A stretch of DNA of 64,000 bases from an uncultured Gemmatimonadota bacterium (lineage in GTDB: Bacteria > JAAXHH01). The stretch lies in assembly GCA_951812955.1 (NCBI GenBank), contig OX638340.1, positions 1,216,001-1,280,000 of the forward strand, given 5' to 3'. Position numbers and translations under genes: made by a program. Under the pieces are notes generated by a model. The model had not been told where the DNA came from, ran no database searches, and saw only the letters and a list, made by a program, of their open reading frames with translations. This document shows positions 85-18,506 of this stretch, piece by piece. The first letter of the stretch is position 1, and every line of letters begins with the position of its first letter.

Positions 85-2088
85 ATGTCCCATCTCACCA
101 TAGGCACGGCAGGTCACGTCGACCACGGCAAGAGCGCCCTGGTCGAGGCACTCACAGGTGTTCATCCCGACAGCCTCAAAGAAGAGAAGGACCGGGGCAT
201 GACGATCGACCTTGGGTTCACCTTCTTGCAGATGAGCGATGGCCGGGAGGTTCCCATCGTGGACGTGCCGGGCCACGAGCGGTTCCTCAAGACCATGGTC
301 GCGGGCGTGAGCGGCATACATCTCGTGCTCTTCGTCGTGGCCGCCGACGAGGGCGTGATGCCACAGACGGTGGAACATCTCGGTACGGTTAAATACATGG
401 GGGTCGGCGAGGGCATCGTCGTCCTGACGAAATGCGACCTGGTCGACGAGGAATGGCTGATGCTCGTCGAAGAAGATGTGAACTCGCTCGTATCCGGCTC
501 GTTCCTGGAGAGCGCGCCTGTCGTCCGGGTGTCCTCGATCGAGGGCACGGGGATCGACAGGCTGAAGGAGACCGTCGAGGCGAAGTTGAACGGGATTGCG
601 GTCGACGACGACGCGGGCTACTTCCGATTGCCCGTCGACCGCGTATTCTCCATGAAGGGCTTCGGAACGGTCATAGCCGGCACCGTCCTTTCGGGCAGCC
701 TGGAAGCGGATGGGGACACCGAACTGCTCCCTGCCGGGACGCCGCTGAGGGTCCGGGGCATGCAGAGTCACAATGACTCGGTCGATCGTGCCGAGAAAGG
801 ACAACGGGTAGCGCTGAACGTCTCGAATATCAAAACGAGCGACATACAGCGTGGCGATGAACTCGGCACACCCGGATACCTGCTTCCGACATCAATGACC
901 GATGCACAGTTGCAGTGCCTGGAATCTCTTGAAGAACCCCTCAAGAATCGGCAGCGCGTACGTCTGCACAAGGGTACCAGCGAAACGATCGGCAGATTGA
1001 TCCTCCTCGACAGGGACGAACTGGCCCCCGGCGAAACGGGATTCGTGCAGCTTCGCTTGGAGAGACCCATCGTGGCGGAACGGAACGAACGCTTCATCAT
1101 CCGCGGGTTTTCTTCCATGCGGCTGCTCGGCGGCGGACGATTCTTGGAAGTGTATCCTCAAAAGAACCGCCGTTTCCGCCAGACCGTCCTGGACTACCTG
1201 GAAGCGGTGACCGACGCGGAGCCGGATGTCCTGGTAGAACGGGTCATGCGGCACGCCTACGGTGAACATCGGCTCAAATCCATGCAGGACCTCGTTCGAT
1301 CCACGAACTTGAGCGGCGACGTGTTGCAACGGTCCGTGACCCGTTTGGAAGAAGAAGGTGTACTCGTACGGTTCCAGGACCGGCGGTTTCTGCACAATCA
1401 CTGGTACGCCGCCTTGAAGGACGAACTGGTCGTTGCGCTCGACAAGATGCACCGTGACCAGCGACTAAAGGACACCTTGCCCAAGGACGCCCCGAAGCTA
1501 CAGCTATCCTGGGAAGCGCCCGATACCGTCTACGATACGCTGCTCAAGGATCTCGACGAGGAATCCAGGATCGTACTGTCCGGTCGGTCGATCCGCCTGT
1601 CCACGCACGACGTTACATTGACGAGTCAGGAGAAGCGCGTTCTCGAGGCGTTCGAGGAGTTGGCCGAGGCCGATCCACCGGCCGTATTTTCGATGAACGA
1701 AATCACCCAGGTTATGGAAGATCGATCAATCGTCCCAGGGGATTTACCGGTTGATCTGAAGTCAAGCCAAGATATGATTAGGAGTATGGCGGCCTACGCG
1801 CTAGAGCTTGGAATCTTCGTCGAGTTCGCGGAGCGCCAGATCATGCATCACCAGGGGCTAGATGGGGTCAGGGAAAGCCTGGTGAACTATCTGAAAAACC
1901 ATGGAACGGTCCGGGCTTCCGAGTTCCGCGGCCACCTGGGTATCTCCCGCGCGGACGCCACCGCGTTGTTGGACTACTTCTGCGACCTGGGCGTGACCAA
2001 CCGGGAATCGGGGACGCATCGGCTGGCTGGCGAGGACGGGGACGGTGGACAGGACGGGGACGGTGGCCAGGAGGAAGATCGCGGATAA
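85..2088 (+). CDS. selB: Selenocysteine-specific translation elongation factor SelB
   Basis: 667-aa ORF. The N-terminal GTPase has motifs GTAGHVDHGKS (G1), DVPGHERF and TKCDL (NKxD-like). The long C-terminal extension of ~300 aa is typical of the SelB winged-helix mRNA/SECIS-binding domains. It lies immediately upstream of tRNA-Sec. Confidence 0.9.
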   Translation: MSHLTIGTAGHVDHGKSALVEALTGVHPDSLKEEKDRGMTIDLGFTFLQMSDGREVPIVDVPGHERFLKTMVAGVSGIHLVLFVVAADEGVMPQTVEHLGTVKYMGVGEGIVVLTKCDLVDEEWLMLVEEDVNSLVSGSFLESAPVVRVSSIEGTGIDRLKETVEAKLNGIAVDDDAGYFRLPVDRVFSMKGFGTVIAGTVLSGSLEADGDTELLPAGTPLRVRGMQSHNDSVDRAEKGQRVALNVSNIKTSDIQRGDELGTPGYLLPTSMTDAQLQCLESLEEPLKNRQRVRLHKGTSETIGRLILLDRDELAPGETGFVQLRLERPIVAERNERFIIRGFSSMRLLGGGRFLEVYPQKNRRFRQTVLDYLEAVTDAEPDVLVERVMRHAYGEHRLKSMQDLVRSTNLSGDVLQRSVTRLEEEGVLVRFQDRRFLHNHWYAALKDELVVALDKMHRDQRLKDTLPKDAPKLQLSWEAPDTVYDTLLKDLDEESRIVLSGRSIRLSTHDVTLTSQEKRVLEAFEELAEADPPAVFSMNEITQVMEDRSIVPGDLPVDLKSSQDMIRSMAAYALELGIFVEFAERQIMHHQGLDGVRESLVNYLKNHGTVRASEFRGHLGISRADATALLDYFCDLGVTNRESGTHRLAGEDGDGGQDGDGGQEEDRG

Positions 2089-2160: not shown

Positions 2161-2259
2161 GGGGAGTGTATGGGTTGCTGGTGCGCCTCACGGACTTCAA
2201 ATCCGATGGCGGGCCCTAAACAGGTCCGTGGTGGGTTCGATTCCCACACGCTCCCCCCA
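2161..2259 (+). tRNA. selC: tRNA-Sec (anticodon UCA), selC
   Basis: 99 nt, beginning GGGGAGTG and ending CACGCTCCCC(C)CA. It has an 8-bp acceptor stem with one G-U pair and a long variable arm. The anticodon stem-loop GGACTTCAAATCC is identical to E. coli selC, with anticodon TCA reading UGA. It sits 72 bp downstream of selB. Confidence 0.9.
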
Positions 2260-2477
2260 GTGTATTTCCCATACCAATTAGTACGTAATCTAACTTCATA
2301 ATATCATCGTTCCTGATTTTATAAAGGAGAACTGCAGGCATATAATACACCGAGTGTGGTTATACCTCTGTCGTGGGGGTCGTGCAATATCCGGTCGCCA
2401 AACCCAACAGATTTCCGGCTATTCAATTTACAAACTGCAGTTTATTTGCCGTGGACTTATCTGATTAAGGAATTACG

Positions 2478-2990
2478 TCAATGGGGATGATTCTCAGGAC
2501 GTATCTTTAACCATTCGATTTTCTTTAATACACCAATTACCGCTTCTGTGTAGATTTCCTTCGTCGGCCAACTCTGTTTTTTGTTAATATATGCTTCTAT
2601 AAATGGTCGGTTAGTTTTAAGAAAGTGGTAAATAGACTCTTTCATATCAAAGCTTAATTCGGACGAATGATGAGATAAAGCGATATCAAGTTGCAACAAC
2701 ATGTGTTGGTAACTTCTATATCGCGCTTCATCCAGTTCACTACCACTTATTGGTCTGCGTTTACCGATTTCCCCGACTTCCGTAGACCTTATGGTAAATG
2801 ATTCCGGATTCAATATCTTAGAAATTTGGGTTACTATGATACCCCGAATTTGTTTTGCCTGTTGAGAGCGTCTATATCGACGGGAAAAAAATGTTTTTGT
2901 TGCCAAAACTGCTGCGACAATTATACCTATCAATATCCCATTCTGTATTTCTGTTAAACTGTTGTAATTCATAGATATACAATCTCCCAC
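2478..2990 (-). CDS. Hypothetical protein with N-terminal transmembrane helix, encoded in the AT-rich islet
   Basis: 170-aa ORF (GTG at 2990, or ATG at 2972 giving MNYNSL...). It has the hydrophobic segment GILIGIIVAAVLA, low-GC codon usage unlike the host genes, and no recognisable family. Confidence 0.4.
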   Translation of the reverse strand: MGDCISMNYNSLTEIQNGILIGIIVAAVLATKTFFSRRYRRSQQAKQIRGIIVTQISKILNPESFTIRSTEVGEIGKRRPISGSELDEARYRSYQHMLLQLDIALSHHSSELSFDMKESIYHFLKTNRPFIEAYINKKQSWPTKEIYTEAVIGVLKKIEWLKIRPENHPH

Positions 2991-3074
2991 ACTGGTAATT
3001 CGGCCTTTACTCTCTCGATTAGTTCACGGACCTGGGACTGAAAGTAGCTTATATTAAAAGTTACAATCAGGTTT

Positions 3075-3097
3075 TTCGATTCCCACACGCTCCCCCA
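3075..3097. repeat. attR-like direct repeat of the tRNA-Sec 3' end
   Basis: TTCGATTCCCACACGCTCCCCCA matches 2238-2259 of tRNA-Sec, with one C fewer in the C-run. Confidence 0.7.
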
Positions 3098-3115
3098 ACC
3101 AAAAAGGAATAACCC

Positions 3116-3724
3116 TTGACCCGAAAGGCCGGTCAACCCGCGACAAAACCTGTCGAACCTGATACACAGCCCGGCATGCCCATGGAAATCCTGGGCATGT
3201 ACCTCTTCATCGCCAGCGAACTGATCATCTTCATCACGCTGCTCTTCATCCTGTTCTGGCTGAGGTCGGGTCTCGTAGCGGAATGGCCTCCACCGGACCA
3301 GCCCCGGCTACCCATCGGGATCACGGGTATAAACACCCTGTTTCTACTGGTAAGCGGCTACACCATGCACCGGGCATACCAGGCCGTGAAGCGGAATGCC
3401 TCCCGCCAGCTGACCCGGTGGCTGATGATAACGTGCGTACTGGGCGTGGTCTTCCTCACGGTCCAGGGCTTCGAATGGATCCGGCTGATTCGCTTCGGGC
3501 TGAGTATGACCTCGAGTCTGTACGGCGCCATGTTCTATTCGATCATCGGACTCCACGCGGTCCACGTACTCGCCACCGTGCTCGTCCTGCTCTACCTCTG
3601 GGTTCGGTCCTCCACCGGCGTCTATACCGCTGATAAACACATGGGCGTCGTACTGGGCTACATGTTCTGGCTCTTCGTCGTCCTCATCTGGCCCATCCTC
3701 TACATCCTGGTCTACCTGGTATAA
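3116..3724 (+). CDS. Cytochrome c oxidase subunit III-like (heme-copper oxidase subunit III family) membrane protein
   Basis: 202 aa with about five hydrophobic helices. Sequence resembles small CoxIII/CyoC-type subunits (FEWIRL, GLHAVHVLATVLVL). It is GC-rich like the host. Starts at TTG 3116, with an alternative ATG at 3176. Confidence 0.5.
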   Translation: MTRKAGQPATKPVEPDTQPGMPMEILGMYLFIASELIIFITLLFILFWLRSGLVAEWPPPDQPRLPIGITGINTLFLLVSGYTMHRAYQAVKRNASRQLTRWLMITCVLGVVFLTVQGFEWIRLIRFGLSMTSSLYGAMFYSIIGLHAVHVLATVLVLLYLWVRSSTGVYTADKHMGVVLGYMFWLFVVLIWPILYILVYLV

Positions 3725-3882
3725 ACCGACTAACCTGAACACAACGATGGATAGAAACCAAAAAGCTGTGCTATCTATACAACGTGCAAAACCCCCTCAG
3801 AGTATAGGTTTGTTTTCTACACTACACAAATTGGGACAGGTCTGCATTGCGGGGTTAATATGATCACATCCATGCAGAAAAC

Positions 3883-4566
3883 TCAATATGCCAGAACTCC
3901 AGTTTTATCGACAATCCAGTCGATCATGCAGCGGAAGCATGGACACTGTTCGCCACCTCTCTCGTCAAACAAAACTTCTGATAAGTCTGCTTTGTTTAGA
4001 ATGGTGTGGCAGTCCGATATTTCTCGGTAGGATCGTTTAAGTTTGGTACGAAACAACTGCTCAACAATCCTTTTGGGGGGATTGTCTTGGTTTTGTTCTT
4101 CGGGAGGTAGTCGCCAACCCTGAGGTTTGGTGCTCATCTTGAGTTGCGACTGCAGGTGATTCGGTGTTGCGAGAAGCAACATTTCCAAGTCGTGTTTCAA
4201 TGCACTAGGGTAAAATCGAGATAAACAACTTTGAACCTCATTCGGTCTAGCCCGTGCAGGCAATTCCCTCTTCACCAACATTCTCTGTAAGTCTTTAAGT
4301 TCTCGAAGGTTTCTGTGCCTAAACTCTGTATTCTCATAATAACGATTGGGGTAAAGATCGGGTAACCCTACGACAAGATCATTCTCATCATTCAACAGCT
4401 TTTCGGCTCCTCTAGGTCCAATTTTACGGAAAAACTTTGATTTGTTTTCGAGTGAAATCGTCTGTATACCCCATCCATTTACTCTAAGTATTGATATCCA
4501 GTCTCCCCACAGCGCAGATAGCGCTTTACAGTCCGACTTACCTTCCAAGTAGACCCACACCTTCAC
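3883..4566 (-). CDS. Small partner protein of the ATPase (possible Toprim-like/DUF4276-like effector), hypothetical
   Basis: 227 aa. Its GTG start overlaps the TGA of the upstream reading frame (GTGA). The N-terminus VWVYLEGKSDCKAL is an acidic E-G-x-S-D motif reminiscent of the Toprim-like small partners of OLD/AAA_21 ATPases. It has two C-terminal Cys pairs (CPCFRC). Composition is low-GC. Confidence 0.5.
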   Translation of the reverse strand: MKVWVYLEGKSDCKALSALWGDWISILRVNGWGIQTISLENKSKFFRKIGPRGAEKLLNDENDLVVGLPDLYPNRYYENTEFRHRNLRELKDLQRMLVKRELPARARPNEVQSCLSRFYPSALKHDLEMLLLATPNHLQSQLKMSTKPQGWRLPPEEQNQDNPPKRIVEQLFRTKLKRSYREISDCHTILNKADLSEVLFDERGGEQCPCFRCMIDWIVDKTGVLAY

Positions 4567-4717
4567 GCACCTGCCTCCAGTTCGCCAGATCTATGAAGGT
4601 CGCCTAAGGTTTCGCCGGAGACGTCTTCAAGCATTTGCATCAGTGCGCTGCGACTCGAGGGGCGATACCACCTGACTTTCGAGTCGTCCAACGTGCGAGT
4701 CATAACGGCTACATCAT

Positions 4718-5863
4718 CTATACCAATATACCAAAGCAGTCGAGCAGGTCTGGGCTATGGGTTGTCACGAGCACCTGTGCACGCTCTGCAGCAGACTTGA
4801 TCATTTCCGCCACTATCGGCAACAGGCCGGGATGAAGTCCCAACTCCGGTTCGTCTATAGCTATCAGTGGAGGAGGAACTGGATTCAATAGCGCAGTCGC
4901 CAGACACAGGAACCGCAACATACCGTCAGAGAGTTCCCACAGGTACATGGAACGGGAGATTCCTTTTTCTCGTATCCCGACCAGAGCTTGCGGAGGAGTT
5001 CCGTAGGTAGTTTCGCAATGGATATCCTCGAATGTGGGATACGACACGCGCAGGTATTCGTGTAAGTCCTCTGCAGTCGAACGATAGTCGTATCGTGTCA
5101 GAATTTCGTGTAGCACTGTACCCAAATTGTCACCCACTGACGTCAACATCGTATCCCGTTTTATATCCGCTGGTTTTGATCTAAGCGCAGAAGACCAGGT
5201 GACGTCAAAGCCCGGGTAAAATGCCATACCTGCCAACAAAAACCTAGCGACAGCGGGAATTGGAAACTCATTAAAGAACCTTATCTGGGAAAGTAATAGA
5301 GCCATTTCTTGTTGTGCGGCTATTCCGCGTTCCTGATTCTTTTCTGCCGAACTGGATTCCTGCACCGCAGAAGGTTCGGGCTGCGCAACATCAAAAGGAA
5401 TCAAACGGTGTTTTTCTCTGTCAAATACTTGCCTTCTATACTGTGTTGCCTCCAGAAACTTTAGTGATTCATCATGGCCTGTATACGGATTCAGATTCCT
5501 GAGAACTTCATACTCAGGTTGCATCTGTCCATCCACATTCACTTTCAAAACAACTTCGTACTTTAGTGGGTTATCATTCTGTAGTGGTAGATCATTCCAT
5601 CGAGGAGTCCTTGGTCTACAAAAATCAATCTTCCAACTCAATCGATCAGTGCTGTTGCCCGCCGTAAGCATAGATTGAGCGCCTCGATGCCAACTAAGAG
5701 CAGTTTCTATCGGAAAGTCACAACATTCTCTTATTAACCTTAGGCAATCGATCAGCGAACTCTTGCCGCTAGCATTCGCACCGATTACCACCGTCAAAGG
5801 CTTAAGGTCAGCCTTAAAATCGCTGAGGAGCCGGTAGCCACTTACCTCGATATTCATGATCAT
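4718..5863 (-). CDS. ABC-type ATPase of the AAA_21/OLD-like family (possible 3' frameshift; see findings)
   Basis: 381 aa. It has Walker A VVIGANASGKSS, Walker B/D-loop LIAIDEPELGLHP and the H-loop TTHSPDLL typical of AAA_21/OLD N-terminal ATPases. Low-GC island gene. Confidence 0.8.
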   Translation of the reverse strand: MIMNIEVSGYRLLSDFKADLKPLTVVIGANASGKSSLIDCLRLIRECCDFPIETALSWHRGAQSMLTAGNSTDRLSWKIDFCRPRTPRWNDLPLQNDNPLKYEVVLKVNVDGQMQPEYEVLRNLNPYTGHDESLKFLEATQYRRQVFDREKHRLIPFDVAQPEPSAVQESSSAEKNQERGIAAQQEMALLLSQIRFFNEFPIPAVARFLLAGMAFYPGFDVTWSSALRSKPADIKRDTMLTSVGDNLGTVLHEILTRYDYRSTAEDLHEYLRVSYPTFEDIHCETTYGTPPQALVGIREKGISRSMYLWELSDGMLRFLCLATALLNPVPPPLIAIDEPELGLHPGLLPIVAEMIKSAAERAQVLVTTHSPDLLDCFGILV

Positions 5864-6182
5864 GATCTACCACCTTAAGCTTACTCTCGAAGGTCCATAG
5901 ATCTTCTACTGAGTTAGAATACGATGCACTCCGCCAGAAGGTATCAAAATCTAGATTCAAATATACATAGTCATTCTTTCAATTACAATCTCGTTGACAG
6001 TGTTGAATCTTGGTACGTCAGAAAGGTCATGAAGACACATGAGAAGATGACTCGGTTGAACCTACAAGTTTACCATTTATTTATTGTTGTAGTTCAGGCT
6101 AATTTCAATCTGTGTTATGGGCATAAAGGAAGATCCAAAAACAGTGGAAGATGAACAAAGCTCACTGAGACATGAAGGTTCT

Positions 6183-7013
6183 TCACCTGAAATCCGCGAT
6201 GGATGAAAGATATTCGTAGCTCTGGCGGGCGGCGTCTTCGGGTTCCATGAGCTCGGCAAAGGCCTGGTGCACGGTGACGTAACCGTCGTATTCCAACTCC
6301 TCAAGCGTCCGCATGATGACGGGGAAATCGATCCCGCCCGTTTCCTGGAGTGGAACCGGATCGTGGGGCGCGGGTCCTCGTACCCAGGTGTTCAGGGTCA
6401 TGGATCCATCGGGATTCAGGCGGTGGTTCTGCAGGTAGACGTTGAAGAGCCAGGGCTCGAAACGCTTTATGGTTTCCGGACCGTAATCCTGGCCGCACAG
6501 ATCCAGGTTCGCCGGTTCGTAGATGATGCCGAAATTCTCGCGACCGACCTGTTTCAGCACCGAAACCGACTCCTCCACGGTTTCAAACAGGCTGCGGGTA
6601 TGAGACTGGTGGGCCAGCCGGATGTCCCGTTCGGCCGCCTCGTCCGAAGCCCACCGCACCCAGGCGATATCTTCTTCCGTCTTCATGCCGATCCGGATCA
6701 GGTCGGCGTCCAGCAATTCTGCCAGGTCCAGGTAGGGCGTGATGTTCCGCAAGGCGTCCGGGGCGTGTTCGTCATTTGCGGGAATGGGGATGTCTCCCGT
6801 AACCATTGAAACGGGGAGATCCCGATCATCGAGGATCTTCCGTACGGCTGTGATCTGTTCCAGCGGCGACTTGATGCCGGCCTGGGAAGCCCGCATGCAC
6901 ATGGCGGAGTATCCGATCTCCAGCGCCAGGTCGGCCAGGTGTTCCATGGATCGGTTGGCTTCTTCCTTGTTCAGAACGGATTCGGCGACGCGTACGGACA
7001 ACGAGAGCTCCAT
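6183..7013 (-). CDS. Sugar phosphate isomerase/epimerase (xylose-isomerase-like TIM barrel) family protein
   Basis: 276 aa. Overall similarity to the AP-endonuclease-2/xylose-isomerase-like TIM barrel family. Confidence 0.55.
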   Translation of the reverse strand: MELSLSVRVAESVLNKEEANRSMEHLADLALEIGYSAMCMRASQAGIKSPLEQITAVRKILDDRDLPVSMVTGDIPIPANDEHAPDALRNITPYLDLAELLDADLIRIGMKTEEDIAWVRWASDEAAERDIRLAHQSHTRSLFETVEESVSVLKQVGRENFGIIYEPANLDLCGQDYGPETIKRFEPWLFNVYLQNHRLNPDGSMTLNTWVRGPAPHDPVPLQETGGIDFPVIMRTLEELEYDGYVTVHQAFAELMEPEDAARQSYEYLSSIADFR

Positions 7014-7093
7014 AGACTCAAACCTCTACTTTTTCAGGGTAACATGGCTATAAGGTAACATGGCAATAAGGATGACGAGGCAACACCAACGGC

Positions 7094-7720
7094 CTAACGC
7101 AACTGTACTTCTGATCCACCCGGCAACTGGTGACCGACACAGGCAAGAACCTGGGCGGCAAAGCGATACGTGAGGCCCCAGAGCACGGGCCCTTCACCGT
7201 CCAGGAGATCGATGGCGCATACTTCCCGTTCTCCCCATTCGCCCACGACTGGGGTAGTCACGTACCGGTTCTGATCCATTAGACCAGCAAGCGGGAACCA
7301 GAATGCGTCCTGGACCTCGTGGTTAAGTGATAACTCGAACCCATGCGTAAGACAAAACACGAAAGCGGCGACGTGCACCTTGCTGAGATGTGTAGCCTGG
7401 TCGTCGAGCCGGCAGACGTAGTCCGCCCCGGTAAGGTCGAGACCGGTTTCCTCCCGCGTTTCACGTATGGCGGTTTGCCGGGGATCGACATCGGTAGCGT
7501 CGATCTTCCCGCCGGGAAAACCGATATGGCCGGACCATGGATCGCCGTCGCGCCGCGCACGCACCAGGAAGAGCAATTCCATTCCCCCAACCGCCTCGCG
7601 CAGAAGGACGGCAACGGACGCCGTGAGCGCGCCGGCGGCGGGGTCCAGCAACCTGGCGCGCCTGACGCGCAGCTTTTCAATCAGTGCTCTTTCTTGAATC
7701 ATCGCACCGCTGCTCTCCAT
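7094..7720 (-). CDS. NUDIX hydrolase (CoA pyrophosphatase-like)
   Basis: Nudix box GGKIDATDVDPRQTAIRETREETGL. The start is trimmed to ATG 7720 (MESSGAM...) because the longer ORF overlaps the upstream PhyH gene. Confidence 0.75.
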   Translation of the reverse strand: MESSGAMIQERALIEKLRVRRARLLDPAAGALTASVAVLLREAVGGMELLFLVRARRDGDPWSGHIGFPGGKIDATDVDPRQTAIRETREETGLDLTGADYVCRLDDQATHLSKVHVAAFVFCLTHGFELSLNHEVQDAFWFPLAGLMDQNRYVTTPVVGEWGEREVCAIDLLDGEGPVLWGLTYRFAAQVLACVGHQLPGGSEVQLR

Positions 7721-7772
7721 AGGCAGAACATTTCCACTCGCGACCTGTTTTTCGTGTGCGGCTCCCGACGAT

Positions 7773-8630
7773 TCATGACCGTGCGAACACGACCTGGTTT
7801 CGGGGATGGTCGGCGCGCTGGCCCGGACGCCTGTTGCCCAGGTTGGCATCGATGACCGGCCGGTTTTCCTCGCTGCACGCCGAATCGTCGATACAGAGGC
7901 CGTCCTCATAGAACGTGATCCCAATTGCTTCGCGGATGCGGCACGACGTGTTGGCCCGGGCGCCGTGCACGACCCAGTGGCTGTGCAGGGTGGCGTCGCC
8001 AGCGGGAATCTCCTCTTCCACCACGGGGTTCCGCCTAGTGCGGATGTGGCCTTCGAAGTAGGATTCCGATTTGCGGTGGATCCCCCTGGGGCCCAAGACT
8101 CTTGACCTGTGGGTACCGCTGGCGAATCGCGGCGGCCCCATGTCGATAGCGGTGTCCACGAGGGGTATCCACATGGTGAGCACGTTGTCCGAATGAAGGG
8201 GCCAATGCGGACCGTCCTGGTGCCATGGCGTGAGCCAGCTACCGGGTTCCTTGAACATCGCCTTGTCGTAGTAGATGCGCACCGCGTCCACGCCCATCAG
8301 GTCGGCCGCGATCTTCCCGAAACGGGGCGACTGGATGAACCGCGCCGCACGCTCGTCGGCTTCCCTCAGGTTGAAGGTCTGCATGAATACGCGGGAGAAA
8401 TCATCCTCCGGCCGGTCGCTCATCTTTTTCGCCCCGGCAAACCGATTGGCCGTGACCGACTTCAACACTTCGCGGTACACGTCGATCTCTTCCCTTGAAC
8501 AAACGCCACCCAGATGGACGTGGCCGTTCTCGCGGTATTGGCGTACGTGGTCTGCGGTCAGGGAGTATTCCGACGAAAGATCCGGTCTGAGGGTCGGTTC
8601 GCACGTCGTCATGGATAGAAATCCTTCCAC
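7773..8630 (-). CDS. Phytanoyl-CoA dioxygenase (PhyH) family Fe(II)/2-oxoglutarate oxygenase
   Basis: 285 aa. N-terminal LTADHVRQYRENGHVHL and WHQDGPHWP (the iron-binding HxD context) are typical of PhyH. Confidence 0.65.
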   Translation of the reverse strand: MEGFLSMTTCEPTLRPDLSSEYSLTADHVRQYRENGHVHLGGVCSREEIDVYREVLKSVTANRFAGAKKMSDRPEDDFSRVFMQTFNLREADERAARFIQSPRFGKIAADLMGVDAVRIYYDKAMFKEPGSWLTPWHQDGPHWPLHSDNVLTMWIPLVDTAIDMGPPRFASGTHRSRVLGPRGIHRKSESYFEGHIRTRRNPVVEEEIPAGDATLHSHWVVHGARANTSCRIREAIGITFYEDGLCIDDSACSEENRPVIDANLGNRRPGQRADHPRNQVVFARS

Positions 8631-11327: not shown

Positions 11328-12500
11328 CTAGGCTATCGTACGGGGTTTCAGTTCGCCTGGACGGGTGAATCGAGCGAGCGCGAAGAGGCTAGTGTCGACT
11401 GGCGGCGTTTCGTCGTACAGTTTGGCGGCCAGGATCTCGCCCAGTACCGGGCCGAACTTGAACCCGTGCCCCGAAAACCCCGCGGCTACGACTACGTGGC
11501 TGTAATCGGGATGGCGATCCAGGATGAAGTGGTAGTCCGCAGAATTGGTGTAGAGACAGTGTTTCACCGTGACGGGATTGCGGAAAAGGTGGGGACATCT
11601 TCGGCCGACGAATGCCTGCACCGCGGCGAGATTGACGCGATCCACGTCTTCGGGGTCATCGGCATCGACGATACGGCCGGTTCTATGGCAGCCGGCTTTC
11701 ACCCCAGGCACCTGTACCTGGGGCACGCAGTAAAAGGGATCGGCGGTGTGATAATCGATCACGTTGGGCATGGCACCCGCCTCATGCGAGACCGGCCCGG
11801 CCTGCGGAAAGTAGGCCAGCAGTTCGCGCGTGATCACCAACTTGGCTTTGATCCCCAGTGCGTCAAGCCACCGGCCCGTCCATCCACCCGCTGCCAGCAC
11901 CAGGCTGGCAGCCGACCAGGAGCGCCCGTCGGACGCTGTTACCTCGACACGGTCTTCGCGCGGATCAATCGCAGCGACTTCCGTTTCCGTCAGGGCGTCC
12001 ACGCCATCTTCCCGGACGCAGTCCCACATACTCCGAACCAATACGTCCGCGAAAAGTACCGCGCTGTCGGGCTGGTGGATCGCTTCGCTTGTCCGTGGCA
12101 GGTTCAATTGAGGGAAACGGCGGGAAAAGGCAACGCCGGCCAGCCGCTCGTAGGGTAGTCCGCATTCCCGCAACCGGGTTTCAAGGATACCCAGTACCTC
12201 CGCGTCTGCTGGCGCCAGGTTGCAGATCCCGGTCTGTCTGAACAGCGGCCTGCCCAGGCGTTTCGCGAGGTCTTCCCAGAACCGGAACGCCCGCGACGCC
12301 ATTTCGACGTACACGTTCTCTTCGTAATCGAAACGAAACATCCGGCTGTCGCCGTGCGAACTGCCGTGTTGGTGTGCGGGCGCGTATCTTTCTAGCAGAA
12401 GTACGCGTTTTCCGCGCCCGGCCAGGACATAGGCAGACGAGACGCCGACGACCCCTCCGCCGACCACGATGACATCGTACTGGTTCTCCCGCCGGCTCAC
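11328..12500 (-). CDS. FAD-dependent oxidoreductase, monomeric sarcosine oxidase / N-methyltryptophan oxidase (MSOX/MTOX) family
   Basis: The Rossmann motif DVIVVGGGVVG is present. HGSSHGDSRMF and the C-terminal GFSGHGFKFGPVLGEILA closely match MSOX-family signatures. Confidence 0.8.
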   Translation of the reverse strand: MSRRENQYDVIVVGGGVVGVSSAYVLAGRGKRVLLLERYAPAHQHGSSHGDSRMFRFDYEENVYVEMASRAFRFWEDLAKRLGRPLFRQTGICNLAPADAEVLGILETRLRECGLPYERLAGVAFSRRFPQLNLPRTSEAIHQPDSAVLFADVLVRSMWDCVREDGVDALTETEVAAIDPREDRVEVTASDGRSWSAASLVLAAGGWTGRWLDALGIKAKLVITRELLAYFPQAGPVSHEAGAMPNVIDYHTADPFYCVPQVQVPGVKAGCHRTGRIVDADDPEDVDRVNLAAVQAFVGRRCPHLFRNPVTVKHCLYTNSADYHFILDRHPDYSHVVVAAGFSGHGFKFGPVLGEILAAKLYDETPPVDTSLFALARFTRPGELKPRTIA

Positions 12501-13492
12501 GGCAGGCCCCGTGTCGCGCGGAGCAAGGTCTCCTGCACGAGCAGTTCGTGGGACGGGGGACGGTCCGGCGGCTGATCCCCGGATATGGTTTTCAGGAACG
12601 ACTCCAGCTCGAGGTCGTACAGCTCCTGGCGGCTTCGGCCCTCCACGGGCACCCGGGATTCTCCAGCTGAATATCCGTCCCGGTCGCCGGTCAGGACCAG
12701 CCGGATCTCCGTGCCCGGTTCGAAGGGTTCGATGAGTATGGCGCTTCCCTCTGTGCCGTACACCTCGAAACGGCGCGCGGCCGGCGAAGGTTCCATGGCG
12801 GCGATGTCCACGGTGGCCATGGCGTGATCGTATTCGAATACACCCAGACCGTTATCGGTGAAGGCGGTGACTTCCCCGGTCTCGTTTCTCAGGAACGCGG
12901 TTACCTTTGACGGACGGCCGAGGATCCAGACCACCTGGTCGAGCATGTGGCCGGCCAGGTCGTAGAATATGCCGCCTTGGTGTGTACCGATTACCTCTCT
13001 GGAAGTGGCTGGAACGTTTGTCGACATGTGCGCCCGTATGGAAAAAACGTTGCCCAGCATGCCGGACCTTGCCCAGTCCGCAATTTTGACGAACCCGTCG
13101 TGATACCGGAACATGTACCCCATCTGCACCTGCAGGTTCGCCTTTTCCGCCAAAGCGGCCACCCGCTGCCAGGCGGGCCAGTCGTCCCCGGCAGGCTTGT
13201 CATACCAGGCATGTTTGCCGGCGCGGATGATCTCTTCGGTCTGGGCCAGGCTTTCGTCGTTGCGGCCTTCCGATGCAACGGCGACGACAGCCGGGTCACC
13301 GAGCATATCCTCCGCGCATTCGAACCAGCGGACGTCGGCGTACGGACCGTCGACGTGTTCCAGGGCGGCCCTCCTCTCCGCATTGGGCTCGAACACCCCG
13401 ACGCACTCGACGTCTGGGTTGGTCAACATGGACTGAAGTTTGCCGGCGGCATGCCCGTGACCGGTGCCGTATTGCGCCATGTGAATCGACAT
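12497..13492 (-). CDS. Gfo/Idh/MocA family NAD(P)-dependent oxidoreductase
   Basis: Start trimmed to ATG 13492 (MSIHMAQYGTGHGHAAGK..., a Rossmann-like N-terminus). The rest shows Gfo/Idh/MocA fold similarity. There is a 4-nt overlap with the downstream gene. Confidence 0.65.
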   Translation of the reverse strand: MSIHMAQYGTGHGHAAGKLQSMLTNPDVECVGVFEPNAERRAALEHVDGPYADVRWFECAEDMLGDPAVVAVASEGRNDESLAQTEEIIRAGKHAWYDKPAGDDWPAWQRVAALAEKANLQVQMGYMFRYHDGFVKIADWARSGMLGNVFSIRAHMSTNVPATSREVIGTHQGGIFYDLAGHMLDQVVWILGRPSKVTAFLRNETGEVTAFTDNGLGVFEYDHAMATVDIAAMEPSPAARRFEVYGTEGSAILIEPFEPGTEIRLVLTGDRDGYSAGESRVPVEGRSRQELYDLELESFLKTISGDQPPDRPPSHELLVQETLLRATRGLP

Positions 13493-13680
13493 TTTACGGT
13501 TCCTCTGTGTGCAATGACTGAGACTGTTTCGGGTTACCGGGAAGTAAATGCCGGACGTGGTATCGTCAAGCGAATTCGGGTGGATATGACGCTTGACATC
13601 CGGTCCCGTTTCCGCTACGTTCGCACCAATCTTTCCATGATCCATTAGCTCAAAACCTATTACAGACCAGGAGTTGCAAG

Positions 13681-14529
13681 GTGTCCCTTTCCCAGGCGCA
13701 GATCGACCGATTCAGAGAGGTCGGTTTCCTTAACGTGGGCCGCGTTTACAGCGATAATGAGGCCGACGCATTGCGGGACCGCCTGATGACCGTAATCGCG
13801 GGCACGTCCCGCGGGAGGGCCGAGGCGGTTCGTAACCTGCGCGGCGAGGAGCTCGAGGCGGAAAGAGACGTGGTGATCCAGGTGGTCAATACCTGGCAGG
13901 CGGATGACGGGTTCCGGATCCATCTCTATCACCCCGGGATATGCCGGATGGCCTGCGAACTGATGGGGACCGACGTACTGCGGGTGTGGCACGACCAGAT
14001 CCAGTATAAACCGCCGCGGCGAGGCGGGGCGACGGACTGGCACCAGGACCATCCGTACTGGCCGATCATCCAGCCAGCCGATCTGGTTAGCGCCTGGGTG
14101 GCTCTGGACGATGCAACTGTCGAAAACGGCTGCATGCGTATGGTGCCGCGCAGCCACCAATGGGGACCCCATAAGGGCGGTACGATTGGGACGAACGAAG
14201 ACGGTTTCACGCCGGATCCTGATCTTTCCCTCTTACCGGATGACGAAGATGTCGAAATAGTGCCCTGTGAAGTCAAGAAAGGCGAGTGCATGTTCCACCA
14301 CTGCCTTACGTGGCACGGCAGTCCGCCCAATCCATCCGAATACGGCCGGCCGGCCATCGCGGTGCACTACATGCCCGGATGGACGCGTTACGAACCGACC
14401 AGGACGCATATCATGGAACGAAGGGTAGACGTGGAACCCGGAGAACTCCTGACCGGCCATTACTTCCCCACCGTGTGGGATCACGGCCCCGTCAAACCGC
14501 CGGAGCACTGGTCCGAGGAGCAGGCATGA
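13681..14529 (+). CDS. Phytanoyl-CoA dioxygenase (PhyH) family oxygenase
   Basis: 282 aa. IDRFREVGFLNVGRVYSD and WHQDHPYWP are PhyH signatures. GTG start. Confidence 0.65.
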   Translation: MSLSQAQIDRFREVGFLNVGRVYSDNEADALRDRLMTVIAGTSRGRAEAVRNLRGEELEAERDVVIQVVNTWQADDGFRIHLYHPGICRMACELMGTDVLRVWHDQIQYKPPRRGGATDWHQDHPYWPIIQPADLVSAWVALDDATVENGCMRMVPRSHQWGPHKGGTIGTNEDGFTPDPDLSLLPDDEDVEIVPCEVKKGECMFHHCLTWHGSPPNPSEYGRPAIAVHYMPGWTRYEPTRTHIMERRVDVEPGELLTGHYFPTVWDHGPVKPPEHWSEEQA

Positions 14530-15773
14530 GCGTTGAGGCCAACGTCAACACCGCCTCCCGGCCCGGCGAACTGCGTATCACCGACATGCGCACGGTCACG
14601 ATCGGCGCGTCAACGATTATCAGGCTCGATACCAACCAGGACATTCACGGCCTGGGCGAGGTGCGGGACGGCGCGAGCAAGACCTATGCCCTGGGCCTCA
14701 AGTCGCGCATCCTGGGCGAGAACCCCTGCGAAGTCGACAGGATATTCCGGAAGATCCGCCAGTTCGGGCACCACGCCAGGCAGGCCGGCGGTGTCTGCGC
14801 TATCGAGATGGCCCTGATGGATCTGGCGGGCAAGGTCTACGGCGTGCCCGCCTATCAACTTGCAGGCGGTAAATTCAGGGATTCGGTGCGCATATACTGC
14901 GATACGACCACGTCCCCGGACGCAGAAGAGATGGGGCGTCGCCTCAAGGAACGCGTGGAACGGGGGTTCACCTTTCTGAAGATGGACGTGGGTATCGGCC
15001 TGCTGAAGGCCATACCCGGAACCCTGTCGGCCCCTGCAGGGATGCTGGACACGCTGCACATCATGCATCCATTCACGGGGATTCGGCTGACGGACAAAGG
15101 CATCGGCGTATTGTCGGATTACGTGGCGGGTGTCCGCGACATAGTCGGTTACGAAATCCCGCTCGCCGTCGACCACTTCGGGCACATCGGCGTGGAGGAT
15201 TGCATCCGCCTGGGCAAGGCGCTGGACCGGTACAACCTGGCCTGGTACGAGGATATGGTCCCGTGGCAGTTCACGGAGCAGTACATTCGCTTGCGGGACG
15301 CCTGCGACACGCCGATCTGCACGGGGGAGGACATCTACCTCAAAGATGGGTTCATGGACCTCTTCGAAAACCGGGCCATCTCCGTGTGTCATCCCGACCT
15401 GGCCACGTCGGGCGGCATCCTGGAAACCAAGAAGATCGGCGATTCGGCCCAGGAACACGGCATCTCCATGGCGCTGCACATGTCCGCCATGCCGGTCGCC
15501 CAGATGGCCAGCGTACACTGTGCCGCGGCCACCGAGAACTTCATCGCCCTGGAACACCACCACGTGGACGTGCCGTGGTGGGACGACCTGGTAACCGGCC
15601 TGCCGGATCCAGCGGTACAGGACGGTTTCATGGCGGTGCCCGAAGCGCCCGGTCTGGGAATCGAATTGAATGAAGAGGCGATTCGGGAGCACATCAGCGA
15701 CAAGGATCCGGGATACTTCGAACCCACAGACGAGTGGAATGACCTGCGTTCGCACGATCGCCTATGGAGTTAG
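14526..15773 (+). CDS. Enolase-superfamily enzyme (mandelate racemase/muconate lactonizing enzyme family; sugar-acid dehydratase-like)
   Basis: Its ATG overlaps the stop of the upstream PhyH gene (ATGA). It has the capping domain, the GFTFLKMDVG KxK motif, and DHFGH...WYED...TGED metal-ligand motifs. Confidence 0.75.
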   Translation: MSVEANVNTASRPGELRITDMRTVTIGASTIIRLDTNQDIHGLGEVRDGASKTYALGLKSRILGENPCEVDRIFRKIRQFGHHARQAGGVCAIEMALMDLAGKVYGVPAYQLAGGKFRDSVRIYCDTTTSPDAEEMGRRLKERVERGFTFLKMDVGIGLLKAIPGTLSAPAGMLDTLHIMHPFTGIRLTDKGIGVLSDYVAGVRDIVGYEIPLAVDHFGHIGVEDCIRLGKALDRYNLAWYEDMVPWQFTEQYIRLRDACDTPICTGEDIYLKDGFMDLFENRAISVCHPDLATSGGILETKKIGDSAQEHGISMALHMSAMPVAQMASVHCAAATENFIALEHHHVDVPWWDDLVTGLPDPAVQDGFMAVPEAPGLGIELNEEAIREHISDKDPGYFEPTDEWNDLRSHDRLWS

Positions 15774-15845
15774 TAAAACGGAAGAGCACCAGGAGGTCCA
15801 CGCCCACGTTCGTCTTTGGAGCGGGGCATCTGAAGGAGCGTATCC

Positions 15846-16868
15846 ATGACTATTCCCGTTGCCCAGGGTCCGCCGTTACCGTTTGAGCCCAGCCCCTACA
15901 TCGCGCTTACTGAAACGCAACAGAGCCGGTTCGACGAAGACGGCTTTATCCTGATTGAGGATGCCCTCTCGCCGAGCCACGTCGAACGGCTGCTCAAGGT
16001 CGTCGACACGCTCTACGACAATTTCCACAGGACCCACGGTACCCCGCCCGACGCGCCTTACCAGATTCGCAACGCCCTGATTCACCACGAGGAGCTTTTC
16101 GCGTTGATCGAATACCGGAAGATCCTGTCGCTGGTCGTGGACGTCATGGGGGTAAACATACAGATCCGCACTTCCCACGTGGACGTCCGTCCTCCCATGA
16201 AAGATCACATGGGTGGAGAACTGGGGGCCAAGGGCAGCTTTTTCCCATGGCATTCGGACGCACCCAATTACGGCTATCCCATTACCAACGGCCGGATTCC
16301 CTTTTTAGAAGTGAAAGTCGGGTACTACCTCACCGATCTCACCGAGCACAACAGCGGCGCCATATGCGTGGTGCGGGGCAGTCACAAGCTTTCGCCGGAA
16401 CTGATCCACGATCCGGATTACCAGATCGACCCGATGGACATCGTGGAAGTGCGTGTCAGGCCGGGTACCGCCATGGTCTGGCGCACGGCGCTCTGGCACT
16501 GCCTGGCCCCCAATCTCTCCGGGCGAACCCGCAAGTGCCTCTACTACGGTTACAACCACCGCTGGGCACGACCCGGGGACTACGACCGCCAGGACTCCGA
16601 CCTGTTGGCCCGTTGCACACCCGTTCAGCGCCAGCTGCTGGGTTCCAACACCACGGAGGACGGAGTGGTTTACCAGGACGGCGATCCGGCCCATCCGGCT
16701 TCCAGGTACTGGCGGCCCGAAACCGCGGACGTACCCCTGGAAGCATGGGCTGATAGTCAATATCGGAAAAAACACCGCAGGGAACGGAAGCTATGGGAGA
16801 AACGGAATAGGCTGCCCCCCGGCGCCGTGGGCGCGCCAATAGAGCAGGAGGAAAGCCTCCTGGATTAG
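15846..16868 (+). CDS. PhyH family Fe(II)/2OG oxygenase
   Basis: 340 aa. PWHSDAPNYGYP carries the HxD motif, and the overall architecture is PhyH-like. Confidence 0.6.
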   Translation: MTIPVAQGPPLPFEPSPYIALTETQQSRFDEDGFILIEDALSPSHVERLLKVVDTLYDNFHRTHGTPPDAPYQIRNALIHHEELFALIEYRKILSLVVDVMGVNIQIRTSHVDVRPPMKDHMGGELGAKGSFFPWHSDAPNYGYPITNGRIPFLEVKVGYYLTDLTEHNSGAICVVRGSHKLSPELIHDPDYQIDPMDIVEVRVRPGTAMVWRTALWHCLAPNLSGRTRKCLYYGYNHRWARPGDYDRQDSDLLARCTPVQRQLLGSNTTEDGVVYQDGDPAHPASRYWRPETADVPLEAWADSQYRKKHRRERKLWEKRNRLPPGAVGAPIEQEESLLD

Positions 16869-16947
16869 AGCCGAGACGGGGACCGGAAGGAAACCCTCAA
16901 ACCGCAAGTCATCCGCGAATAAGGGTGTATTTACATCAGAGGAAACC

Positions 16948-17679
16948 ATGACCGAAGCCGAAATCTTCGAATTCGACCTCAATGGCTATATCATGTACCG
17001 GAACGTTCTAACCCGGGACCAGGTCGACCACATGAACGGGGTGCTCGACGAACACCTTACAGAAGAATCCTTCAATTTCCCATTTCTTCACCTGGACCCG
17101 ATGTTCATGGAAGTCATGGCCCTGCCCCGGACGCTGAACATACTCGGGACGATGATCGGGGACTGGATGCGCCTGGACCATGCCTACGGGCTCCAGATGG
17201 ATACGCTCTCCGAGGAACGGGGCGATACAAGACCAAACCTCCACGGCGGACCGCTGGAGGACAACGGCGAGCACCATTACCAGTGGTTCAATGGAAAGAT
17301 GTACAACGGCCTGACCGTCGTCATGTATGCTCTCGAAGACGTGAACCCCGGTGACGGCGGCTTCATCTGCGTACCGGGAAGCCACAAGGCCAACATGGAC
17401 TTCAAACCCGCGGTGAATTCGCATATCGTCGTCAATCCTGCCTTCAGGTCCGGCGATATGCTCATCTTCACGGAAGCGCTGGTCCATGGGACGAACACGT
17501 GGACCTCGTCGAACAAGCGGCGATCCCTGCTATACAAGTACTCCCCGGGACATTCCACGTGGGCGATCCCGGAAAATTGGGAAAAGCTGCGGGCCCTGGC
17601 GGCCAACGATCTGCAGCGCGACCTGCTCAGGGCGCCCAGCATCGAGGGCCGGACGCCCGTTGAGATACCGAAAGCGTGA
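16948..17679 (+). CDS. PhyH-like Fe(II)/2OG oxygenase, tandem paralog A
   Basis: 243 aa. It is about 65-70% identical to the next gene: MTEAEIFEFDLNGYI..., GDGGFICVPGSHKAN. Confidence 0.6.
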   Translation: MTEAEIFEFDLNGYIMYRNVLTRDQVDHMNGVLDEHLTEESFNFPFLHLDPMFMEVMALPRTLNILGTMIGDWMRLDHAYGLQMDTLSEERGDTRPNLHGGPLEDNGEHHYQWFNGKMYNGLTVVMYALEDVNPGDGGFICVPGSHKANMDFKPAVNSHIVVNPAFRSGDMLIFTEALVHGTNTWTSSNKRRSLLYKYSPGHSTWAIPENWEKLRALAANDLQRDLLRAPSIEGRTPVEIPKA

Positions 17680-17774
17680 GGGCGTAGAGCATCTGGCGGG
17701 GGCCGCTCCTTCGAACGCTTCCCGCGACTGAAAACACCCGATGTTGCGCGACGCGGGGCATTCCGGAGGAACCC

Positions 17775-18506
17775 ATGACCGAAGCCGAAATCTTCGAATT
17801 CGACCTCAACGGATACATCATCTACAAGGACATGCTGTCCCGGGACCAGGTGGATCACATGAACGGAATCCTGGACGGGCACCTCGCCGACGATGCCCAC
17901 GGCTTCCAGTTCCTTACACTCGATCCGGTATTCATGGAACTCATGGCCCATCCACGCACGCTGCGGATCATCCGCACGATGATCGGTGAATGGATGCGTC
18001 TGGACCATGCGTACGGTATGCAGATGGACAGACAGTCCGTCGAACGGGGCCATGTGAAACCGAATCTTCACGGCGGCCTGCGCCACGACCACGGAGAACA
18101 CCAGTACCAGTGGCACGATGGAAGGATGTACAATGGACTCATCGTGGTCATGTACGCACTCAAGGACGTCCACCCTGGCGACGGCGGCTTGATCTGCGTC
18201 CCGGGAAGTCACAAGGCCAACATGAATTTCCGGCCACCGGTGGATTCCCACCTAGTGGTGAATCCCTCCTTCATGGCGGGCGACATGCTCATCTTCACCG
18301 AAGCGCTGGTCCACGGCACCACCACGTGGACTTCCGACCAGCGGCGGCGCTCCTTGCTCTATAAGTATTCGCCCGGGTACTCCGCCTGGGCCTCGGCCGA
18401 CGGGCTGGACGACGCCCGTGCCCTGGCAACTGACGATGTCCAGCGCGACCTGCTGAGGCCGCCCAGCGTCGGAAGACGGACGCCCGTGGAGATCCCGGAT
18501 GAGTGA
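17775..18506 (+). CDS. PhyH-like Fe(II)/2OG oxygenase, tandem paralog B
   Basis: 243 aa. Same length and N-terminus (MTEAEIFEFDLNGYI) as the gene at 16948. Confidence 0.6.
   Translation: MTEAEIFEFDLNGYIIYKDMLSRDQVDHMNGILDGHLADDAHGFQFLTLDPVFMELMAHPRTLRIIRTMIGEWMRLDHAYGMQMDRQSVERGHVKPNLHGGLRHDHGEHQYQWHDGRMYNGLIVVMYALKDVHPGDGGLICVPGSHKANMNFRPPVDSHLVVNPSFMAGDMLIFTEALVHGTTTWTSDQRRRSLLYKYSPGYSAWASADGLDDARALATDDVQRDLLRPPSVGRRTPVEIPDE

Follow-up and report, generated by a model that had tools for sequence, protein, structure and literature searches.

A HEC-01-type ABC ATPase and Toprim gene pair exchanged at an intergenic hot spot of an uncultured bacterium, and most likely inactivated there by an 8-bp duplication

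P2 Old, Gabija, the retron-associated systems, PARIS, AbiL and MADS3-4 have been grouped as systems that combine an ABC ATPase with a Toprim domain (PMC11464382). HEC-01 consists of an ABC ATPase with a TOPRIM partner sharing the metal site of OLD (Payne et al., 10.1101/2024.01.29.577857), and DUF4276 has been described both as a Toprim family and as a homologue of Mad4 (PMC12065111). The window analysed here is a stretch of 64,000 nucleotides (positions 1,216,001 to 1,280,000 of contig OX638340.1, assembly GCA_951812955.1, from an uncultured bacterium recorded as Gemmatimonadota), and positions 3725-6182 of it hold two minus-strand genes, one for an ABC ATPase and one for a small protein of the DUF4276 family. 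With a probability of about 0.62, this locus is a two-gene ABC ATPase and Toprim cassette of a HEC-01-type clade, foreign to its genome, exchanged at a hot spot and, in this copy, most likely inactivated. By analogy with the related systems, we infer an anti-phage role for the pair, with a division of labour between a sensor and an effector.

The features of the cassette are listed below; L001 denotes the same locus in a sister genome (ENA ERZ25072076, a 3.83-Mb contig) and L018 that in a close relative.

3725-6182, minus strand: exchangeable cassette, made up of the two genes (ATPase and partner) and a spacer on each side, delimited by breaks in identity and by guanine-plus-cytosine (GC) content
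5864-6182, minus strand: cassette-specific upstream spacer of 319 bp, the presumed promoter region, which aligns to L001 at 93.1% identity and to L018 not at all
4718-5863, minus strand: truncated open reading frame (ORF) of the ATPase, 381 aa, ABC/AAA_21 by Pfam and PADLOC matches
4719-4734, minus strand: 8-bp tandem duplication, TTGGTATA twice, which frameshifts the ATPase; present as a single copy in L001
4563-4717, minus strand: displaced remnant that encodes, by translation, the C-terminus of the ATPase (residues ~382-430 of the intact protein)
4574-4578, minus strand: GGAGG, a Shine-Dalgarno-like motif read from the sequence, 7 nt 5' of the partner's GTG and inside the 3' end of the ATPase gene
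3883-4566, minus strand: DUF4276/OLD-like Toprim partner, 227 aa, apparently intact
3725-3882, minus strand: cassette-specific downstream spacer of 158 bp, 94.4% identical to L001 as against 84% in the flanks

The cassette extends from the stop codon of the COX3-like gene on one flank to that of the AP_endonuc_2 gene on the other, and its borders lie close to those (3740-6180) of a preliminary description of the window, which had placed two minus-strand genes at 4718-5863 and 3883-4566 in an AT-rich island. Both ORFs are found at these coordinates, encoding 381 and 227 aa, and the island is evident: the GC content of 3740-6180 is 45.6%, versus 60.9% for the remaining window, which makes it the lowest of all 2.44-kb windows in the 64 kb, approximately 4 standard deviations under the mean. 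The deviation extends to GC content at third codon positions, which is 0.48 in the ATPase gene and 0.45 in the partner gene versus 0.75-0.79 in five neighbouring genes. A promoter and terminator scan of the cassette gave nothing above shuffle expectation; this includes a single sigma-70-like match in the upstream spacer (5988-5960), and a search of the downstream spacer for a terminator-like site found none.

The ATPase matches Pfam AAA_21 at 8.5e-36 and AAA_15 at 3.9e-20, bearing out its earlier description as an ABC/AAA_21-type ATPase, and its motifs stand in the order GANASGKSS (residues 28-36), LSDGM (311-315), LIAIDEPELGLHP (333-345) and TTHSP (367-371). These are Walker A, the LSDG signature, Walker B/D-loop and the H-loop; none of the four varies among 35 homologues, and every motif quoted previously (GANASGKSS, LIAIDEPELGLHP and TTHSP in the ATPase, VWVYLEGKSDCKAL in the partner) was found. 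Among PADLOC profiles the best match is HEC-01A at 1.8e-49; eleven HEC-01A profiles match, from 1.8e-49 to 1.9e-20, and weaker matches are obtained with AbiLi (1.2e-21), mad3 (6.6e-21), GajA (1.9e-14), PDC-M07A and Old. The NCBIfam model MAD3 gives 1.7e-30 and 106 bits, far under its equivalog cut-off of 420. Against sequences in the PDB there are just short motif-level matches to OLD and PtuA, including one between the N-terminus and the OLD protein of Thermus scotoductus (6p74_A, 7e-06), and weak SMC_N and RecF-type matches are also present. An identity look-up of the 381-aa product of the window returned no record.

The partner had been likened to the Toprim/DUF4276 or RloB-like small proteins that accompany such ATPases, and the first part of this comparison stands. 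It matches Pfam DUF4276 (PF14103) with 39.5 bits, above the gathering cut-off of 30.2, but has no RloB, AbiLii or NCBIfam match. When 40 of its relatives were scanned singly, 39 matched DUF4276, 31 OLD-like_TOPRIM (PF20469; best 4e-4) and 28 HEC-01B (best 4e-11), and DUF4435 matched neither the partner nor any of the 40, even at E <= 10. Sequence-profile searches of the PDB with the partner profile gave nothing, or one chance-level match (2aby_A, E 0.026). A first structural model from a shallow alignment was poor (predicted local distance difference test score, pLDDT, of 61.7) and its fold search ambiguous; a second model, from a 95-sequence alignment reaching down to 24% identity, has a pLDDT of 97.3 and a predicted template-modelling score of 0.92. 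The five best PDB matches of this model by Foldseek are all C-terminal regions of OLD (E 2e-3 to 2e-2, probability up to 1.0, template-modelling score 0.44-0.54 in the four best), and its top solved matches are the Toprim regions of OLD (class 2 and class 1), AriB and GajA. The predicted fold is a three-layer alpha/beta arrangement around a four-stranded parallel sheet, nearest among known structures to Toprim domains. The preliminary description would have been refuted by a partner lacking any nuclease or Toprim fold; the model shows an OLD-like Toprim fold instead. The Toprim glutamate after strand 1 is present, as E8-G9, which is at least 90% conserved in the 95 sequences and follows the strand at residues 2-7; E128 is invariant in the clade, and conservation reaches at least 90% at E156, R117 and Y180.

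The genome in which the cassette resides has approximately 60% GC, and the cassette, foreign to it, passes as a unit from lineage to lineage at a single intergenic hot spot. Compared with L001, the window is 93-97% identical in nucleotide sequence over the two cassette genes and their spacers, as against 84% for the flanking AP_endonuc_2 and COX3 genes, and the rate of synonymous substitution (dS) is 0.088 for the ATPase and 0.049 for the partner versus 0.66 for AP_endonuc_2, which makes the cassette younger than the divergence of the two genomes by a factor of 7-13. The opposite pattern is found in L018, L051 and L052, where the flanking proteins are 94-99.7% identical to those of the window in amino acid sequence and the cassette proteins 63-67%. 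The flanks of these near-conspecific genomes (L018/L051) are 94-95% identical in nucleotide sequence (94.5% over 5.9 kb), an identity that holds to position 6183, the stop codon of AP_endonuc_2; beyond this point the spacer is unalignable and the cassette 68% identical. In two further contigs, L053 and L054, AP_endonuc_2 is 96% and 90% identical to that of the window and the cassette is absent from the same site, the gap between AP_endonuc_2 and COX3 being a spacer of only ~0.5 kb that holds an 86-aa ORF with an N-terminal transmembrane helix and a coiled coil. This ORF, 67-100% identical among relatives, was located as follows:

86-aa ORF in each of: L053, 1960-2217; L054, 3606-3863; L051, 4937-5194; L045, 9810-10067; L009, 8225-8494

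Relative to the pair it is 3' in L051 and L045 and 5' in L009, and neither the window nor L001 has it. That its side relative to the cassette changes from genome to genome points to independent insertions or replacements. Composition and comparative genomics together strongly support the horizontal acquisition proposed for the pair. The cassette comes without an integrase, a transposase or a bracketing repeat. An imperfect direct repeat of 20 nt at the borders (3733-3752 and 6185-6204, 16 of 20 positions, 2 of 300 shuffles), one of whose copies forms the 3' end of AP_endonuc_2, was considered and set aside as probably due to chance, because it is not reproduced in L001, L045, L009 or L051.

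The record of L018 (JAPOOT010000071.1), the genome nearest to the window by its flanks, is labelled Gemmatimonadetes, and the other syntenic genomes are labelled Candidatus Latescibacterota or simply "bacterium"; since these labels disagree, the taxonomic label of the source organism is uncertain.

The pair is conserved as an operon. The subfamily of the partner is small, with 340 clusters at 50% identity (E <= 1e-3) among 1.84 billion representatives. Scanning genomes at one per species brought up 43 loci, approximately 30 of them in metagenome-assembled genomes (MAGs) of Candidatus Latescibacterota and the others in Planctomycetota, Syntrophia, Sumerlaeota, Ignavibacteria, Terriglobia and one MAG labelled Gemmatimonadetes. 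The ATPase gene is immediately 5' of the partner gene in 41 of the 43 loci and in the sister locus L001; wherever the contig holds the whole gene it is one contiguous match, except in the frameshifted L043, and a 4-nt stop/start overlap is present in every gene-called locus. The five contexts with called genes show the pair inserted by itself among metabolic genes, flanked by AP_endonuc_2 and COX3, by an FGGY kinase and an FGE-sulfatase, or by genes of leucine and arginine biosynthesis. Synteny of the pair is conserved within three groups of Latescibacterota. Decayed copies were found in five of the 43 loci, by frameshift in L043, L034 and L039, by truncation in L027 and as a remnant in L042; this decay may be genuine or may reflect sequencing error in MAGs.

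Homologous pairs have neighbours of defence type in a few loci. An Old nuclease gene (8.6e-75) and a second ABC ATPase gene, at 4757-8556, adjoin the pair of L026, a Syntrophus MAG. In L020 and L021, both of Latescibacterota, a canonical HEC-01 pair (HEC-01A 2e-162, HEC-01B 2e-72; at 12156-13984 and 14035-15225, respectively) lies 1.5-3.4 kb from the homologous pair, and a PDC-M38 A/B pair, at 5412-7438, is found beside that of L035, a Planctomycetales MAG. Most of the pairs, however, stand among housekeeping genes, so that a defence neighbourhood is a sometime rather than a usual setting.

In L049, two unannotated genes (4796-7591; 565 and 333 aa, no Pfam match) stand directly 5' of the pair and are absent from the otherwise syntenic L048 and L050. 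They may be further cargo accreting beside the cassette.

A rival reading takes the pair to be mainly a selfish, toxin-antitoxin-like addiction module, in which the Toprim protein would be the toxin and the ATPase its regulator, and which would persist and spread by post-segregational killing and not by protection from phage. The occurrence of the pair in most genomes as a solo two-gene insert among housekeeping genes, the frequent decay of its copies, the AbiEi_4 gene that adjoins it in L045, and the designation of AAA_21 in Pfam as "putative AbiEii toxin, Type IV TA system" would all fit such a module. It is nevertheless unlikely: the lineage of the window survives with a truncated ATPase beside an intact partner gene that has its own Shine-Dalgarno-like motif, and tolerance of this combination speaks mildly against the ATPase simply neutralising a toxin; furthermore, the related architectures that have been tested act as phage defences, and roles in addiction and in abortive infection are not mutually exclusive.

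The truncation of the ATPase, which the preliminary description missed, is due to a frameshift. The stop codon of the 381-aa ORF (4718-4720) lies 151 nt 5' of the partner's GTG (4566-4564), and the TGA that overlaps this GTG (GTGA, 4566-4563) belongs to another frame. Ahead of it, the 16-nt stretch TTGGTATATTGGTATA at 4719-4734 is a perfect tandem of two copies of TTGGTATA; deletion of one 8-mer in silico yields a 430-aa ORF that ends in ...GELEAGA and whose TGA is the one overlapping the partner's GTG. The best 120 homologues of the restored ATPase are approximately 430 aa long (424-478 aa) and cover 100% of it at 63-70% identity, with the exception of the window's own 381-aa product, the top match, which covers 88%. 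At the same locus, L001 encodes an intact 430-aa ATPase with the 4-nt overlap and has TTGGTATA once. The GTGA overlap had been thought to imply co-translation of the two genes; the overlap does exist, and translational coupling holds for the family, but the frame upstream of the partner is not that of the 381-aa ORF, and here the coupling is broken because the overlapping frame has been displaced by the duplication.

The 49 C-terminal residues that the frameshift removes are among the most conserved of the family. In 35 sequences, V384, R387, W396, R398, P399, L405, L409 and L417 are invariant, as is the segment G418-A428 except for the variable S423. The truncated ATPase keeps its Walker A, signature, Walker B and H-loop motifs and is without everything past the H-loop region. 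With both the conserved tail and the stop/start overlap lost, loss of function is the most likely state, and this copy is most likely a recently inactivated system that retains an intact but orphaned nuclease gene. The frame 3' of the duplication is free of secondary damage, and the ratios of nonsynonymous to synonymous substitution rates (dN/dS) between the window and L001, 0.21 for the ATPase, 0.58 for the partner and 0.61 for the tail (6 changes), rest on counts too few to show relaxed selection.

If the duplication were an assembly or consensus error, the two genes would be whole and translationally coupled in the actual genome. A metagenome-assembled chromosome (3.81 Mb) appears to be the source, other MAG copies of the pair have frameshifts that are possibly sequencing errors, and the downstream frame is undamaged save for the duplication, all of which would be expected from an error. 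However, exact 8-bp tandem duplications in non-homopolymer sequence are not typical of long-read or short-read error, for which reason the duplication was treated as real, and the 381-aa product is identical under both the NCBI and the ENA source. The duplication is thus probably real, and an artefact improbable.

It is very improbable that the duplication is a functional switch, by reversible slippage between ON and OFF states or by programmed -1 frameshifting, that allows some full-length ATPase to be made. A tandem repeat of two copies can revert through slippage, and the undamaged downstream frame would accord with this; against it, the 8-mer is present in two copies only, no canonical slippery heptamer precedes the TAG, and none of the other loci compared carries the tandem repeat, the tail dN/dS being uninformative. 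Programmed frameshifting across the duplication was rejected for want of a slippery site. A housekeeping factor of DNA repair or maintenance, of RecF, SMC or OLD type, to which the weak SMC_N and RecF-type matches and the synteny within three Latescibacterota groups might point, is equally hard to credit given the presence or absence and allele replacement of the pair among near-conspecific genomes, its foreign composition, the frequent decay of its copies and its best matches, which are profiles of defence systems.

For the favoured explanation, a defence cassette of HEC-01 type, a mechanism can be modelled by analogy on PARIS, OLD and Gabija. An oligomer of the ATPase would serve as sensor and scaffold, holding or loading the small Toprim protein. 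On sensing a phage cue, the oligomer would bind or hydrolyse ATP and so release or activate the Toprim protein, which would then cut nucleic acid and abort the infection; the substrate would be tRNA if the pair acts like PARIS, or DNA if it acts like OLD and Gabija.

Several observations weigh against this explanation. The 137 non-redundant neighbours surveyed belong mostly to housekeeping families and not to defence islands, and neither tblastn of the partner against plasmid and phage collections nor a scan of IMG/VR found relatives. The window partner itself matches the PADLOC profile HEC-01B only weakly (E = 0.0056), and BLASTP found no similarity between it and the canonical HEC-01B of L020, which has VEGxGD and DADDD motifs; the ATPases of the same two pairs are 28% identical. 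The DxD that follows strand 3 in Toprim domains is absent throughout the clade, its place being taken by P69-D70-L71-Y72-P73 with one invariant aspartate (D70), and because of this replacement nuclease activity is not assured; the conserved E128 and E156 might compensate. No protection was observed with the HEC-01 system that Payne et al. examined (10.1101/2024.01.29.577857). In favour of defence, E. coli B was protected by one representative from a cold seep from one or more of T4, T5 and T7 (PMC12881386), and the experimental record for HEC-01 as a type is thin and mixed. A bolder and rather doubtful proposal is that the PDLYP clade (340 clusters, concentrated in Latescibacterota) forms a distinct branch in which a DxD-less Toprim uses E8, D70, E128 and E156 or is non-nucleolytic, carried in a recombinase-free 2.5-kb cassette that repeatedly enters one intergenic hot spot, where alleles more than 30% apart replace each other between near-conspecific genomes.

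The surroundings of the cassette, which include a second variable region on the side of the tRNA-Sec, have the following features.

85-2088, plus strand: SelB gene
2162-2259, plus strand: tRNA-Sec
2258-3074: low-GC islet, 39% GC
2478-2990, minus strand: 170-aa orphan ORF within the tRNA-Sec islet
3116-3724, plus strand: COX3-like gene, of native GC content (58%)
6183-7013, minus strand: AP_endonuc_2 gene (xylose-isomerase-like TIM barrel)

Beyond AP_endonuc_2 are NUDIX, PhyH, ACCA and amidohydrolase genes. The tRNA-Sec is where it had been reported to be, near the cassette, and was the sole match in an Rfam search. A perfect 22-nt direct repeat of its 3' end (2236-2257 = 3075-3096) had been taken as an att remnant marking the cassette, a view that did not hold: this att-like repeat brackets a separate 840-bp islet (39% GC), which the COX3-like gene separates from the cassette beginning at 3725. 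The islet contains no integrase, and its sole ORF is the 170-aa orphan, a membrane-anchored protein that has no match in Pfam, PADLOC or NCBIfam; it looks like the remnant of an element that integrated at the tRNA-Sec. Homology to L001 ends at position 3099 of the window, beside the second copy of the repeat and 14 nt into an MCP-like_PDC_1 gene of L001. Between COX3 and tRNA-Sec (11457-17860), L001 has this gene together with genes for a 1147-aa SWM_repeat/Calx-beta protein, a 270-aa ORF, an HTH_21 transposase fragment and a 124-aa ORF, and the absence of all of these from the window identifies the tRNA-Sec side as a second variable region.

If the favoured explanation is true, the locus adds little that is conceptually new, because the pairing of an ABC ATPase with a Toprim protein already defines a recognised class (PARIS, OLD, Gabija, AbiL, MADS3-4 and HEC-01). 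It would be a clean natural example of the behaviour of such cassettes in an uncultured phylum, at a hot spot that exists in four states among close relatives: two alleles that differ by approximately 32%, a site without the cassette, and a copy with a frameshift. The natural truncation marks the near-invariant tail of the ATPase as a candidate element for docking of the partner or for regulation, and PDLYP in place of DxD gives the HEC-01 type, itself poorly validated, a definite question for biochemistry.

The architecture of ATPase and Toprim partner, previously noted as that of known and candidate defence systems, is indeed theirs, and the comparison separates the pair from most of them. 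AbiL (AbiLi ATPase and AbiLii RloB-like Toprim) has the same gene order and size class, and AbiLi matches the ATPase at 1.2e-21, more weakly than HEC-01A does; membership was rejected since the partner is not of RloB type, with no RloB or AbiLii match. The MADS systems have an ATPase, MAD3, related to that of the window, and their Mad4 is a homologue of DUF4276 (PMC12065111), but the score of 106 bits is far from the MAD3 cut-off of 420 and no methyltransferase or other mad gene is nearby, so that MADS membership was also rejected. The fold of the partner resembles the Toprim or catalytic regions of OLD and of GajA in Gabija; in these, ATPase and Toprim are fused, whereas the window has two polypeptides and lacks the conserved DxD, and unlike Gabija it has no GajB/UvrD helicase in the cassette or its flanks. 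Gabija and OLD were rejected because the domains are unfused and the helicase is missing.

PARIS (AriA and AriB; PMC11464382) resembles the pair in having the ATPase and the Toprim nuclease as separate proteins, and is its best mechanistic template, with an ATPase scaffold that releases a Toprim nuclease. Membership in PARIS was rejected because AriB is a DUF4435 protein and the window partner belongs to DUF4276; the match of the ATPase to "AriA" in PADLOC is to a generic profile of AAA_21 length only (304 positions). HEC-01 (Hma-embedded candidate 01; 10.1101/2024.01.29.577857) is likewise a two-gene unit, first the ABC ATPase, for which AAA_21/AAA_15 is a misnomer, and then a small Toprim-like protein on a polypeptide of its own; the pair of the window differs in not being embedded in an Hma system and in having PDLYP where the canonical HEC-01B of L020 has a DxD of DADDD type. 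The pair had been considered unassignable to a named family and perhaps divergent or undescribed. It is assignable to HEC-01, by the match of the ATPase to HEC-01A, by its architecture and in part by the partner, of which 28 of 40 relatives match HEC-01B, and it is divergent: a clade apart within this PADLOC candidate type, disrupted here, and an ordinary accessory cassette of the defence kind.

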